This document shows positions 32,345-39,103 of a DNA stretch of 64,000 bases, one piece after another. The notes under the pieces are model-generated. The model was not told where the DNA came from and made no database searches. It saw only the letters and a list, made by a program, of their open reading frames with translations. The DNA comes from Dictyostelium discoideum (Eukaryota). Numbering within the stretch: the first letter of the stretch is position 1; each line of letters opens with the position of its first letter. The position numbers and the translations under genes were made by a program. The stretch lies in assembly GCA_000004695.1 (NCBI GenBank), contig CM000151.3, positions 7,904,001-7,968,000 of the forward strand, in the 5' to 3' direction.

Positions 32345-32415
32345 GGCTCCTTAGCATAGTGGTATTGCGCTTCCCTAGTAAGGAAGAGGTCATGAGTTCG
32401 ATCCTCATAGGAGCC
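32345..32415 (+). tRNA. tRNA-Thr(AGU): tRNA-Thr (anticodon AGT), 71 nt.
   Basis: Cloverleaf read directly. Acceptor GGCTCCT pairs with AGGAGCC. D-arm GCAT/AGTGGTA/TTGC. Anticodon stem CTTCC/GGAAG with loop CTAGTAA (anticodon AGT). T-arm ATGAG/TTCGATC/CTCAT. Confidence 0.93.
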
Positions 32416-32445
32416 TTTTAAAAAACCACAACTTTATAGTCGCAT

Positions 32446-32706: not shown

Positions 32707-35143
32707 TTATAAATGAGAAAGATCAATTATATTAATATATTTTGTAATAAATAAAGGATTTAAACTATTGATAAAATTCATATTAGAATTTCTAATATAA
32801 ATAGTTTGTAAACCAAAAGGTATGCAACCATCAGCGGAAATATTTTGATTAAATTCAGAGTTTAGAATGAATAATTTTTTCAAAAGTTTTGGTAAAACAT
32901 TATTTCCAATTGGTTGATTGAAATGATAACCTAAATTTAGAGATTCTATTGAATTTGGTAAATCACCAACTTCAATTTTACGATTAAAATAATTTAGTGT
33001 CAAAGTTTTTAAAGATGTAGTATTTTTTAACATTTCTCTTAAACCATTATTTGTACCACCAACACAAAAATTGGATGAACTATTTGAACCGAAACCACCT
33101 TTATTACTAATACCATAGCAGTCATATTCATCATTTTTCACGGTTATCTCTCTATTGTAACCACCGAGATTTAAAGATTCTAAAGTTGGAGGTAAAGTAT
33201 CGGCAGGAATGATTTGATTGAAATGGTAACCGAAATTCAAAGATTTTAATTTGGTATGAATGAAAATACCTTGTGGTATAATTTGATTGAATTTTGAGCC
33301 GAAATCAATACTTGTTAAAGTTTGAGTCATCATTGATAAAGGTCTATTGAATTTATTACCAAAATCAATACTAGTGATACTTGAAGGACACAATTTAATA
33401 TCTCTATCGAATGCACGACCAAATTTAATCTCTCTAATTGAGTTTGGTAAAGACTTTATACCAATATCACTATTGAAATGTTCTCCGAAATGAATTGAGG
33501 TTAAATTATAATTTGAAGAGATATCATTTGCTTTAATATTTTGATTAAATTCTGAATCGAAAACAAGTCTTGTGATTGATTTTGGAATTGGATTAAATGA
33601 AATTGATTCTTGATTTGAACAAGAATTGAATTTATAATCTAAAGTTTTAACAGAATCTGGAATTGAACCAATTTCAATAACACCTTTATAGGATCTTGGA
33701 TCCAAAATCAATGATGTCAATGAGGATGGAAGTTGACCCATTTTAATGGTTTGTTGAAATTTATGACCAAATTGTAAATGTTTCAATTGTTTTGGAAGCC
33801 AATTACCATCCAATGATTGATTGAAACTATCACCAAATGTAATACTAATGACATTGTCACTAATTACACCTTTAGCAATTCTCTGATTGAAACCATAACT
33901 AAATCGAATTGAGGATATTGATGGTGGTAGCAATCTATCTTGAATTACATTATACTCTTTTTCAAATTCAATGGATTTTAATCCCTCTGGTAATGAATTC
34001 ACTCTAATCATTGATAATTCTAATAATGATGAATTTGATAATATTGAAGATGATGATGAATTTGAAATACCATTATTAATACTATTACTACTACTACCAA
34101 TATCACTTGAACCACTACTACTGCTACTACAATTACCACCATCACTATAACTATCATCATCGTCAATATCAGAATCATAGGAATCTTCATCAGCATCATC
34201 ATCATTATCATCATGATAATTTAATACCATTGATTGTAAATAACCTTTGAATTTATAATCCACCAATTGAATTGGTGTTAAAAATACCTTTTTATTTGCA
34301 TGAATATTATAAAGTCTAAGATGAAATAAAATTTGAGTTTTAATAACAATATTTCTCCAAACTTGACGAAATAATAAATAATTTCTATCATTAACACCGT
34401 TTGTTGTTGTTGTGGTTGTCATTATAGTGGTACTACTTCTACTAGTTGTAGTTGTAGTTGTAGTTGTTGTAATTTCACCATCATTACCATTTATTCTTTC
34501 ATTTTTTAATGTTATTATTTTATTTAAATCTTTTTCTTCAATTATTGAATTATTATTATCATTATTATTATTATAAATATTATTATTACTATTTTTATTA
34601 TTATTATTAAATTGGTAATCTTTGTTTATTATATTATTATTATTTTCAATTATTATTAATATTGAATAGTCAAATTTATTATTTCCACAACATTTATTAA
34701 GTGAATTGTGTGTATTTATTATTTTATTTTTACAATCGGTAGTTTTATTTTTTAATTTTAACAATCTGGTGAATTCATCTAATAACTGATATTGATTATA
34801 GTTTAATCCATAATAAGATATTGCTTCTTTATTTACAGTTTTATTTTCAATTAATCTATTATTAATTAATTTGGTAAGTATTTGATTTTTTGGGAAAATG
34901 AAAATAAAAATAAAAAAAAAATAAAAGTGTGCGTGAAAATATCTGAAAAAAAAAATAAAAAAAATAAAAAAAAAACAAAAAATAAAAAAATTAAAAATAT
35001 ACATACCTAAAATTATTACAATAATCCAATAATCCATCGTATGATATATATAATCCATTTATTGATAATATTAATATGCAATCTAAAAATGATTGTTGAT
35101 TATACTCTTTTTTTATTAAGAAATCATAAATTAAATTATCCAT
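32707..35143 (-). CDS. FNIP-repeat protein (Dictyostelium FNIP/LRR-like repeat family), 2 exons: 35007..35143 and 32707..34855. An alternative acceptor gives 32707..34942.
   Basis: About 15 tandem ~22-aa repeats of the form Lxxxxx(L/I)xFGxxFNQxI (for example SIHFGEHFNSDIGIKSLPNSIREIKFGRAFDRDIK), diagnostic of FNIP repeats. Exon 1 is MDNLIYDFLIKKEYNQQSFLDCILILSINGLYISYDGLLDYCNNFR, with donor GTATGT at 35006. Both candidate acceptors (CAG at 34943 and TAG at 34856) are in phase. Confidence 0.7.
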
Positions 35144-36047: not shown

Positions 36048-37055
36048 ATGGAAGAAAAAATAAAATTTTATTTTGAAATAATTGATTTCCAAAATCAAAA
36101 ATTTAAAATTCAAGAATTTACCTCAAAATTAATTGGTTTAAAAGAAGAAAGTTTTACAACATTTAAACCAATAGTATATGAAAAATATTTAAATTGGACT
36201 CAATCAATTGAGGAATCAATTTTAAAAACAAATGGTACAATAAATAAATCAATTTTTGAAGAAATTTTTTCCTATTGCGGTTACATCGGAGAATTCCTGG
36301 AATATGAGCCTTTTATAGTATTTTTAAAATTTACAACATTTGGTATAATTTTAGATGATTATATATTTGAAAAAATTAATTCACTAAATATGAAATTAAA
36401 TGAAAAAGAAAAACTTATTAATAGTTTAATATATTATAATAATAAAAATGAAAATAAAATTGGTTTCGAATTCTGGGAAATAATAAATGAATTTCAAAAT
36501 TTTACACATAAAGAGTCATTTCAGAGAATAATAAATGCAAATAGTTTATGGATAAAATCATCAATTGATTCAAGGAATATTTCAAATTCCCCAATAAATT
36601 CAAGATGTTCATTTAATGAATATTTTGAAAAAAGATCATCAGATGCTTCGGGTGATTTTATTTTAACAATTTCTATGATTGGAATAATGGATAATTATAT
36701 TGAAAATTCTATAATAGAAAGTAAAGAATTTCAAACTATAAATTACCATGCAAAGTCTTTTTTTTTATTAATAAATGATTTATATTCATTTAATAGAGAA
36801 ATTAATGAAAATGATTTATTAAACTATATAAAGATATTAGCAATTCAATTAAATTCAATACAATTATCAATTGATAAAACAATTGAATTAATAATTGATC
36901 ATTATTTGAAATTTTTATCGTCAATTGAAACAATCTTAAAATTATACCAAAATGATCAATCAACATATCAATTATTAAAACAAGTTTTCCAAAATTCAAA
37001 TAAAATTTTATCTGGTATTTATTTTGCACATAAAAAAAGTAAAAGATATAATTAA
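36048..37055 (+). CDS. Terpene synthase (class I, microbial-type TPS), 335 aa.
   Basis: Aspartate-rich DDxx(D/E) motif ILDDYIFE and NSE/DTE motif NDLYSFNRE (ND-x2-S-x3-E) at the expected spacing of about 140 aa. The size matches the Dictyostelium TPS family. Confidence 0.75.
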   Translation: MEEKIKFYFEIIDFQNQKFKIQEFTSKLIGLKEESFTTFKPIVYEKYLNWTQSIEESILKTNGTINKSIFEEIFSYCGYIGEFLEYEPFIVFLKFTTFGIILDDYIFEKINSLNMKLNEKEKLINSLIYYNNKNENKIGFEFWEIINEFQNFTHKESFQRIINANSLWIKSSIDSRNISNSPINSRCSFNEYFEKRSSDASGDFILTISMIGIMDNYIENSIIESKEFQTINYHAKSFFLLINDLYSFNREINENDLLNYIKILAIQLNSIQLSIDKTIELIIDHYLKFLSSIETILKLYQNDQSTYQLLKQVFQNSNKILSGIYFAHKKSKRYN

Positions 37056-37346
37056 AATATTAAAAATTAAATAATAAAAAAAAAAAGATATATATACATA
37101 TATATATATATATAAATTACAAGATTGGTTGTTTTTTTTTTTTTAAAATATTTAATTTTTTCATTTTTATTATTATTACTATACCTACTACTACTACTAC
37201 TATTATTATAAAGATTATATTACTATTGTGGAAATGATAAAAAAAAAAAAACTTGAATTAACCATTATTAAATATTAATATTCAGTTTTTGATGAAAGAG
37301 GAGTTGTAAATAATATAGTTATAATTCCTTTTTCTTTTTTCTTTTT

Positions 37347-37408
<62 letters not shown>

Positions 37409-37453
37409 CTTTATAGGAGATGTTAATAACTATCAAACTAAAAACTATATTTT

Positions 37454-38263
37454 TCAATTATTATGGTTTTCATTTTCTTCTGAAATTTCTAATTTGTTCA
37501 TTTCTTTTTCTAAAGTAGATTCTTCAGTTGATTCATTATTTGAGGCTTCAACTTCTTTCTCATTGAATGGAATACCAGTCCAATCGTAGTTTTCATGTAA
37601 TTGACGACGCCATTTCTTGATTTGACCATCCCAAGATCTCTTTGAACAGACTTGATTCTTATTTGGGGTTTTTGGATCAGTTGGTTTTCTCTTTGATTTT
37701 GGAACCAAAGCAATGTAATTTTTGTAACCAGCTGTCATCTTACCAATATCGATTTGTCTTTGTCTAGCGGCCAATCTCTTTGGATCAGTTTCTTTGAGTG
37801 GAGTTTTCTTTGGTGATTCATTGGTTGAAGGAGTGGCACCATCGATAATGGCAACTGGTTGTTCAGTAGTGGTGGTAGAATTTGCAACGGCAGCAAAAGC
37901 GGCATTAACATCATTAATCTTTTTATTTGATTTTGGTGTGGTTGTTGTTGATTTCTTCGATGGTGTTGTTGTAGTATTCTTTTGATTTGGTGTTGCAGTA
38001 TTCAATGAAAATGGAATTGGGTTTTGTTTCTTTGTGGAAGATTTAGTGTTGGAATTATAATGATTGTTACGATTGTTTGATTGTGGTGTGGTGATATTTG
38101 AATTTGCTTTTTTAGTTGGTGTGATGTTATTATTATTATTATTATTATTAATATTAGTTTTTGTAGATGACGATTGTGCATAGGCAATTTTGAATGGACT
38201 AATTTGTGGTGAGAAAATTGGATATTTTTGACCATTTGCAGTGTTGTGTTGTGAACTGTTATT

Positions 38264-38297
<34 letters not shown>

Positions 38298-39103
38298 GGT
38301 GTAGTTGGAAGAGATAATGGTACAACAATTTCTTTTTGATGATTCTCTACAATATCAATTTGAATTGGTCTTTTGGTATTGGCCGATTTAAATGATAGGA
38401 GAACATCAATGGTATATTTAACAGAGGAGGAGGAGGAGGAAGCAGCAACGAAAGCATCGGTAAGTTTGGTGGTGGTGGCGGTTATTGATTCTAAATCGAT
38501 GGTAGAAATTGGAGATGATTCTCTAAGTGGGCTAGATAAAGGAGAGATACCACCAGTGGAGATATCCATACTCTTCAATTCTTTTTTAATGGATTCAATA
38601 TCATATTCATTTTTGGCTAACAATGATGATGATGATGACGAATGTTTTGTTGTTGAAACCATTGAGTTTTTAGAAGGTGTAAATAAAATATTTTTCTTTC
38701 CAAAATTAACACCATCATTACTATTTAATTTTCTATCTTTATTATTATTATTTACATTTGGTCCATTACCAATAATACCAACAGAGTTTTTCTATTTATT
38801 TAATTATTTATTAAAATATAAAAGAAATAAAAAATAAAAAATAAAAATAAAAAAAAATTAGTTTTTATTTTTATTTTTTTATTTTTTATTTATATTGTTT
38901 AATTTAAATTATTTAAATTTTAAAAAAAAAAAAAAAAAAAAATACTTTACCTTTATTGGTGCATTATTTGGTGAATTTGGTATATTATTTTTAATATTTT
39001 TAAATAGTGTTCTATTGGTTTTTGAATTATGGATACCATTGGTAGAACTATTATTATTAGTTGTGGTGGTGGCGATTGGTGTAATTATAGTTGATGATGA
39101 CAT
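37454..39103 (-). CDS. slbp: Histone stem-loop binding protein (SLBP) homolog, 2 exons: 38951..39103 and 37454..38791.
   Basis: C-terminal RNA-binding domain RLAARQRQIDIGKMTAGYKNYIALVPKSKRKPTDPKTPNKNQVCSKRSWDGQIKKWRRQLH matches the SLBP RBD signature (human ...[25 protein letters not shown]). Donor GTAAAG at 38950, acceptor TAG at 38792, in phase. Confidence 0.8.

Follow-up and report, generated by a model that had tools for sequence, protein, structure and literature searches.

We analyzed a window of 64,000 nucleotides (64 kb) of Dictyostelium discoideum DNA (GenBank assembly GCA_000004695.1, contig CM000151.3, positions 7,904,001 to 7,968,000 of the forward strand), and we focus here on one of its genes, DDB_G0277383, which occupies window positions 37454 to 39103 on the minus strand and encodes an SLBP. 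The encoded protein contains a genuine SLBP RNA-binding domain (RBD) by sequence, profile, and predicted fold, far beyond chance, and the cognate RNA target of SLBP, the histone hairpin, is present in D. discoideum. The explanation that we favor as a whole, with good confidence, is that SLBP clamps the histone hairpin while its N-terminal region holds docking motifs, among them one of the eIF4E-binding type.

The gene is the already annotated D. discoideum histone hairpin-binding protein, and the finding as it was posed in a first-pass annotation of this DNA is already known. The suggestion of news made there does not hold: Marz et al. 2008 already reported an HBP/SLBP homolog in D. discoideum (PMC5054213), and protist hairpins and SLBP have been known since that same year, as a passage of PMC12819152 credits the stem-loops and SLBP homologs of protozoa to Davila Lopez & Samuelsson 2008. 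The current view of the hairpin-type histone 3′ end as ancestral to eukaryotes rests on such protist SLBPs and hairpins. The abstract of Davila Lopez & Samuelsson 2008 is also said to name Dictyostelium explicitly. Added here are a direct demonstration that in D. discoideum and seven other dictyostelids the H2AX genes have a covarying hairpin, which variant H2A paralogs lack, and a lead that amoebozoan SLBPs carry a candidate eIF4G-like eIF4E-binding motif.

The RBD sits at the C-terminal end of the protein, after about 380 mostly disordered residues rich in Asn, Ser, and Thr. The features of this part of the gene are the following:

37583..37792, minus strand: SLBP RBD, residues 385-454, supported by Pfam, crystal-structure alignment, predicted local distance difference test (pLDDT) values, and Foldseek
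37658..37669, minus strand: TPNK, residues 426-429, with T426 aligned with human Thr171 (4L8R_C)
37637..37639, minus strand: Arg436, aligned with human Arg181 and invariant in 33 homologs
37457..37582, minus strand: acidic Ser/Thr-rich C-terminal tail, residues 455-496, an acidic tail being found in all dictyostelid orthologs aligned

Against the Pfam family PF15247 (SLBP_RNA_bind; gathering cutoff 27), the RBD scores 103.8 bits (E 4.9e-30) and the full-length protein 103.4 bits. Sequence matches in the PDB are SLBP RBDs only, namely those of Drosophila (4TUX, E 2.8e-17; 4TV0; 4TUW) and human (4L8R/4QOZ, 3e-14), with six significant matches at 44-51% identity over 67-70 columns. The AlphaFold2 model, built with 33 homologs, reaches a pLDDT of 94-98 across residues 381-455 and shows three helices (388-402, 405-413, and 435-453), which is the fold of the human and Drosophila structures (template modeling (TM) score 0.83-0.88). 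When the model was compared with the PDB by Foldseek, the top match was human SLBP (4QOZ_C; TM 0.88, root-mean-square deviation 0.9 Å, 51% identity, 68 columns); the significant matches were SLBP RBDs only, and no non-SLBP match fell below E 3.

The first-pass annotation had called the RBD signature unmistakable, and rightly so, as TPNK...SKRSWDGQIKKWRRQLH is present exactly at residues 426-450 (window 37595-37669). Ten positions of the RBD (T426, P427, N428, K429, K435, R436, S437, W438, D439, and H450) are invariant in the eight dictyostelid orthologs aligned, and most of them are also invariant in the 33 diverse homologs, including the whole of K435 to D439. The conservation of the TPNK threonine, which the first-pass annotation had proposed as a check, is thus borne out. 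D. discoideum and animal SLBPs have in common this threonine, the KR-SWD segment with its stem-contacting arginine, and a C-terminal His; W438, D439, and H450 align with human W183, D184, and H195. Phosphorylation of human Thr171 raises hairpin affinity 7-11-fold, and the hydrogen bonds between human Arg181 and G7, the second G of the stem, are a key contact (PMC10388802). Two positions of the RBD weigh on the other side and set the protein apart from animal SLBPs: I400 stands in place of human Tyr144 and A393 in place of human Arg137. The acidic tail after the RBD is a feature that D. discoideum shares with Drosophila SLBP. Going by the title of PDB entry 4TUW, it may be likened to the phosphorylated acidic tail of the Drosophila protein.

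The RNA partner of this domain was sought at histone genes. An H2AX query identical to the AX4 protein led to dictyostelid H2A proteins, whose loci were then fetched by an exact-sequence index. The ten loci obtained lie outside the window, and H2AX is the only histone class that they cover for D. discoideum. In D. discoideum and the seven other dictyostelids alike, the H2AX locus has one canonical sense-strand hairpin, which lies about 60-221 nucleotides (nt) on the 3′ side of the gene. The eight hairpins are given here as 5′ stem arm, loop, 3′ stem arm, and 3′ flank:

D. discoideum (L010): GGUUUU UUUC AAAACC ACCA, 204 nt after the H2AX stop codon
D. cf. discoideum (L001): GGUUUU UUUC AAAACC ACCA, about 220 nt after the gene end
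D. firmibasis (L002): GGUUUU UUUC AAAACC ACCA, about 203 nt after the gene end
D. purpureum (L007): GGCUUU UUUA AAAGCC ACUCA, about 128 nt past a partial gene model's end
Tieghemostelium lacteum (L003): GGUAUU UUUU AAUACC AUCC, 78 nt after the gene end
Cavenderia fasciculata (L004): GGCUUU UUUC AAAGCC ACCCA, 110 nt after the gene end
Heterostelium album (L005): GGCUUU UUUC AAAGCC ACCCA, 59 nt after the gene end
Polysphondylium violaceum (L006): GGCUUU UUUC AAAGCC ACCCA, 98 nt after the gene end

The stem-loop search that the first-pass annotation had recommended for histone genes thus gave a positive answer. The D. discoideum hairpin has a 6-bp stem starting with GG, a U-rich loop of 4 nt, an A-rich 5′ flank, and ACCA as its 3′ flank; the hairpin RNA reads GGUUUUUUUCAAAACC, and a 26-nt RNA containing it reads AACAAAAGGUUUUUUUCAAAACCACC. 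Scored against the Rfam family Histone3 (RF00032; gathering score 34), the hairpins of P. violaceum (40.4 bits), C. fasciculata and H. album (37.7 bits each), and D. cf. discoideum (35.6 bits) exceed the cutoff, and those of D. firmibasis (33.7 bits) and T. lacteum (28.3 bits) fall below it. Across the eight sequences, all six stem pairs are standard in 100% of cells, with compensatory changes at two of them (C-G/U-A in 4/8 sequences and U-A/A-U in 1/8). None of 500 shuffles gave a covariation score as high, and slid registers collapse.

The hairpin is also specific in its location. The pattern scan returned one sense-strand match close to the 3′ side of each of the eight H2A(X) genes and only four others in all ten loci. 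Two H2A paralogs, P0052 of P. violaceum (198 residues; L008:2804-3400) and P0054 of D. purpureum (L009:5001-5362), have no sense-strand 3′ hairpin, and among dictyostelid H2A paralogs the element seems to be confined to the H2AX-type gene. This distribution mirrors the split in animals between replication-coupled and variant histones. The window itself contains no histone gene in a tblastn search with the four core histones; Rfam at the gathering threshold finds one tRNA only and no histone hairpin in it, and the hairpin pattern scan of both strands finds nothing.

Taken together, the conserved RBD and the conserved, covarying hairpin make it very likely that the SLBP RBD binds the histone hairpin. 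The outcomes that the first-pass annotation had named as fatal to its reading did not occur, because the RBD score lies above the family cutoff and the hairpin exists. What weighs against the favored explanation is that the hairpin evidence comes from a single histone class, H2AX, and not from the H2B, H3, H4, or H1 loci of D. discoideum.

In short, the mechanism that we propose runs as follows. The RBD would clamp the hairpin on histone transcripts, and the bound SLBP may, as in animals, mark histone mRNAs for hairpin-dependent definition of the 3′ end and/or stability, as well as for translation. The approximately 380 mostly disordered N-terminal residues would serve as a series of short docking motifs. 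Best supported among these is the eIF4G-like YTIDVLL with its downstream segment, a putative site for eIF4E. SLBP bound at the 3′ end could in this way touch the cap-binding protein directly, either closing the mRNA into a loop that promotes histone translation or repressing it in the manner of a 4E-BP.

The region that would host these motifs, residues 1-380, is N/S/T-rich and mostly predicted to be disordered, with a pLDDT below 50 for most of it in the AlphaFold2 model. To that extent the first-pass annotation was correct in describing the rest of the protein as low-complexity. What it overlooked are several conserved linear motifs, including the one resembling an eIF4E-binding site: in the alignment of dictyostelid orthologs, which reaches down to 35-47% identity, islands of invariant residues stand out. 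In a comparison of PDB sequences, no similarity was detected between the N-terminal region and the N-termini of animal SLBPs, and only the RBD aligns. Of its conserved segments, the candidate eIF4E-binding site covers two nested features:

38396..38416, minus strand: YTIDVLL, residues 177-183, an exact fit to canonical Y-x4-L-phi
38330..38434, minus strand: extended conserved block, residues 171-205 (SSSSVKYTIDVLLSFKSANTKRPIQIDIVENHQKE), comprising the canonical motif and a downstream hydrophobic/acidic segment

The canonical eIF4E-binding consensus is Y-x4-L-phi, with YTREELL as an example (PMC7139794), and possession of such a motif is a further difference between D. discoideum SLBP and animal SLBPs. 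Tyr177 is invariant in the eight aligned dictyostelids, and VE(N/D)HQKE follows it within the block. A helix is predicted at the motif (residues 179-188), the better scoring of two short helices in the disordered first 380 residues. Beyond the RBD, the block is the sole part of the protein that aligns across the 33 homologs, with the consensus YxRxFLLxF-x6-PxExxIxE.

Its recurrence in the wider family goes far beyond expectation. Among the homologs of a first search, 32 of 40 carry the strict motif upstream of the RBD, where shuffles predict 0.6. When 1.84 billion cluster representatives were searched exhaustively, 2465 matches at E ≤ 1e-3 were obtained, and the census was taken on 119 of the best 150 matches, namely those whose RBD is preceded by 60 or more residues. 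The strict motif occurs in 56 of these 119 family representatives (1.5 expected by chance), a count that sets a minimum for the block and a maximum for strictly canonical motifs, as the strict regular expression undercounts and the homologous block is present in several "negatives" in a form with variant residues. Most copies are eIF4G-like, of the form (R/K)xYxR(D/E)FLLxF(K/Q), and the named proteins that have the motif include those of Thecamoeba, Clastostelium, Planoprotostelium, and Synstelium, thus covering several classes of Amoebozoa. The only second family to recur is Pfam eIF_4G1 (PF12152), which matches the block in 10 of the 33 homologs and equals or exceeds its cutoff of 27 in two (29.4 and 27.0 bits). 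A hidden Markov model (HMM) of the block, made without dictyostelid sequences, has its best match at the homologous site in every dictyostelid protein, with E 9e-6 for that of P. violaceum.

With the eIF4E-binding region of eIF4G and 4E-BP (PF12152), the SLBP block shares the consensus, the helical prediction, and the hydrophobic/acidic segment that follows. The two differ in what the motif is fused to, which is an RNA-hairpin-binding domain in SLBP and the MIF4G/HEAT domains in eIF4G. On the PF12152 criterion, D. discoideum SLBP is not filed as a member of the eIF4G/4E-BP family: it may work like one, which is not the same as being one.

Several points speak against a functional eIF4E site in D. 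discoideum. Its protein has no PF12152 match at E up to 10; the block HMM matches residues 171-194 weakly (E 7e-4, 5.5 bits); and the confidence of the motif helix is moderate, the block having a pLDDT of 64-68. The motif is also short, and about half of the sampled SLBP family, fern proteins among them, is without it. Judged from its sequence, D. discoideum SLBP has close to an even chance of binding eIF4E directly.

The block might instead bind a partner other than eIF4E, or be a relic of the lineage whose interaction was lost in dictyostelids, and we treat this as a serious contender, albeit at less than even chances. It would account for the degenerate canonical positions in Cavenderia (YSVDFIK, L-phi changed to I-K), Heterostelium (HTVEYLL, Y to H), and D. 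purpureum (YDASFFM, L to F), and it agrees with the four dictyostelid proteins scanned singly, none of which gives a significant eIF_4G1 match. It is countered by the exact fit of YTIDVLL to the consensus and its predicted helicity, by the non-dictyostelid homologs in which the motif and about 16 downstream residues attain the curated eIF_4G1 threshold, and by the excess of observed over expected motifs in the eIF4G-like form. The trypanosome protein SLBP2 gives this alternative a further argument. It is an SLBP-family protein of T. brucei that pairs directly with EIF4E2 (PMC7139794; PMC10810786) and, unlike the amoebozoan SLBPs with their canonical eIF4G-like motif, it has no canonical motif (PMC7139794). 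Because SLBP2 binds EIF4E2 without one, a canonical motif is neither necessary nor proven sufficient. The T. brucei pair is at the same time the nearest precedent for an SLBP partnering with an eIF4E, and as such it speaks for eIF4E docking.

As for eIF4E docking, animal SLBP is described as reaching the cap complex indirectly, via SLIP1/MIF4GD and eIF3 (PMC7084953). Amoebozoan SLBPs and about half of the non-animal SLBP family might carry an eIF4G-like motif of their own and contact eIF4E directly, without SLIP1, so that two proteins would close the loop or form a 4E-BP-like switch specific to histones; this broader proposal we advance tentatively, at slightly under even chances. If true, the motif would be a simple mechanism for coupling the histone mRNA's 3′ end to the cap in non-animal eukaryotes, and D. 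discoideum would offer a genetically tractable setting for studying it. A full-text literature search found no description of a canonical eIF4E motif in any SLBP, which is not proof of novelty; such a motif seems to be undescribed.

A separate matter is how the 3′ end itself is formed. The presence of the hairpin is the presence of an RNA target, and it does not by itself prove that the 3′ end arises by cleavage after the hairpin. For U7-type cleavage after the hairpin in Dictyostelium, the signals in the flanking sequences point both ways, and the chances appear roughly even. The 3′ flank ACC(C)A, which in animals is the site where the pre-mRNA is cut, is kept in most species, and in five of the seven loci checked the stretch from stop codon to hairpin contains no AATAAA/ATTAAA. 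Downstream, at 11-19 nt past the stem, a purine-rich element (CAAAGAA, CAAAAGAA, or CAAAGA) was observed in four genera (alignment A2):

L003:10581-10610, Tieghemostelium: post-hairpin purine element
L004:10598-10627, Cavenderia: post-hairpin purine element
L005:5036-5065, Heterostelium: post-hairpin purine element
L006:10628-10657, Polysphondylium: post-hairpin purine element

The CAAAGAA-like element resembles the downstream element of animal histone genes that pairs with U7 small nuclear RNA. Against cleavage, the Dictyostelium species lack the CAAAGAA form and have an A-rich run, ACAAAAAAACAAA, instead. Their hairpin lies about 200 nt past the stop codon, whereas it lies at 60-111 nt in the other genera, and in D. 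discoideum and D. firmibasis an ATTAAA/AATAAA follows 65-85 nt past the hairpin.

These same features support the main rival to our explanation, in which SLBP binds the hairpin without U7-type cleavage, the mRNAs are polyadenylated downstream, and the protein has a role in translation or stability only, via its eIF4E motif. Because the hairpin is distant and hexamers lie downstream of it, it could lie inside a polyadenylated mRNA, as has been proposed for Physarum, where histone mRNAs combine the stem-loop with a poly(A) signal and occur in poly(A)+ RNA (PMC8600027). The 204-221 nt that separate the hairpin from the stop codon in Dictyostelium species, the hexamers beyond it, the purine element that is not conserved there, and the conserved, predicted docking motif for the cap-binding protein, which suggests a cytoplasmic role, all fit this alternative. 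The ACC(C)A flank, the five loci free of hexamers between stop codon and hairpin, and the CAAAGAA-like element of the four genera count against it, none of them decisively. On balance we regard a purely post-transcriptional role as a distinct but minority prospect. That the domain was repurposed and chiefly binds non-histone RNAs, a possibility raised in the first-pass annotation and kept alive by the hairpin having been demonstrated on one histone gene class only, is very improbable, as in eight species the major H2A gene bears a hairpin of canonical histone type in canonical position, two variant H2A paralogs and 64 kb of unrelated genome are free of it, and it is matched by an RBD with conserved RNA-contact residues.

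SLBP as a hairpin-binding protein has a close parallel in the same supergroup. Physarum polycephalum has two amoebozoan SLBPs, PpSLBP1 and PpSLBP2, and histone genes with canonical stem-loops (PMC8600027), whereas the homology search returned one protein for D. discoideum. PpSLBP1 resembles the latter in having a long N-terminal region and a C-terminal RBD, and no motif for eIF4E binding is described in the Physarum study (PMC8600027). Outside the Amoebozoa, two fern proteins, from Adiantum nelumboides (P0312) and Ceratopteris richardii (P0371), have a strong SLBP RBD (98.7 and 89.7 bits to that of Dictyostelium), whereas hairpin-type histone 3′ processing was not found in plants according to PMC8600027; neither of these two fern proteins has an eIF4E-like motif. 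In a metagenome protein of 224 residues (P0286), two separate stretches match the Dictyostelium RBD and may be tandem SLBP RBDs.

Four further conserved segments were found in the N-terminal region:

38672..38695, minus strand: KNILFTPS, residues 84-91, with N85, L87, F88, and P90 invariant in dictyostelids
38297-38314, minus strand: SLPTTP (SxPxTP), residues 211-216, invariant across dictyostelid SLBPs
38189..38215, minus strand: FSPQISPFK (FSPQxSPFK), residues 244-252, with two Ser-Pro sites and columns F244-K252 listed as invariant
38003..38023, minus strand: NPIPFSL (NPIPFxL), residues 308-314, with P309, I310, P311, F312, and L314 invariant

Several of these contain Ser/Thr-Pro sites. The F-T-P of KNILFTPS may be reminiscent of the SFTTP phosphodegron known from human SLBP.

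The gene model that underlies these positions is simple:

37454..39103, minus strand: SLBP gene DDB_G0277383, start codon to stop codon, with a spliced translation of 496 residues
38951..39103 (153 nt), minus strand: exon 1, residues 1-51, with the ATG at 39103, ending in phase 0 before a GTAAAG donor
38792..38950, minus strand: intron of 159 nt, GT..AG, very AT-rich, the excision of which reproduces the annotated protein exactly
37454..38791, minus strand: exon 2, residues 52-496 and the TGA stop codon, read from the sequence

In a homology search, the 496-residue product is identical to DDB_G0277383 of D. discoideum AX4 (100% identity, 100% coverage). This full-length identity validates the exon model and the coordinates given by the first-pass annotation, and it confirms the amoebozoan host that had been claimed there. 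The AX4 record names the product a "hypothetical protein" and UniRef a histone RNA hairpin-binding protein. A pseudogene or chance match is ruled out by the intact frame, the identity to the annotated protein, and the orthologs throughout Dictyostelia.

The window has a G+C content of 22%, and its contig, of 8.48 Mb, is D. discoideum chromosome 2. The neighbors of the SLBP gene are a terpene synthase, an FNIP-repeat protein, and a tRNA, on which ground a functional tie to these adjoining genes was rejected. The open reading frame (ORF) of the terpene synthase (family 2, 335 residues; 36048-37055, plus strand; PF19086, 56.4 bits) is convergent with the SLBP gene, about 400 nt separating their stop codons. 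The FNIP-repeat ORF (783 residues; 32707-35058, minus strand) matches PF05725 in seven stretches (222.6 bits), and the tRNA is a tRNA-Thr with anticodon AGT (32345-32416, plus strand; Rfam 65.5 bits), on which ARAGORN agrees. Flanking the SLBP gene on its 3′ side (37330-37412) are about 80 nt of poly-A on the gene strand, broken at intervals of 6-30 nt by one G, a run that we take to be ordinary intergenic simple sequence of Dictyostelium.

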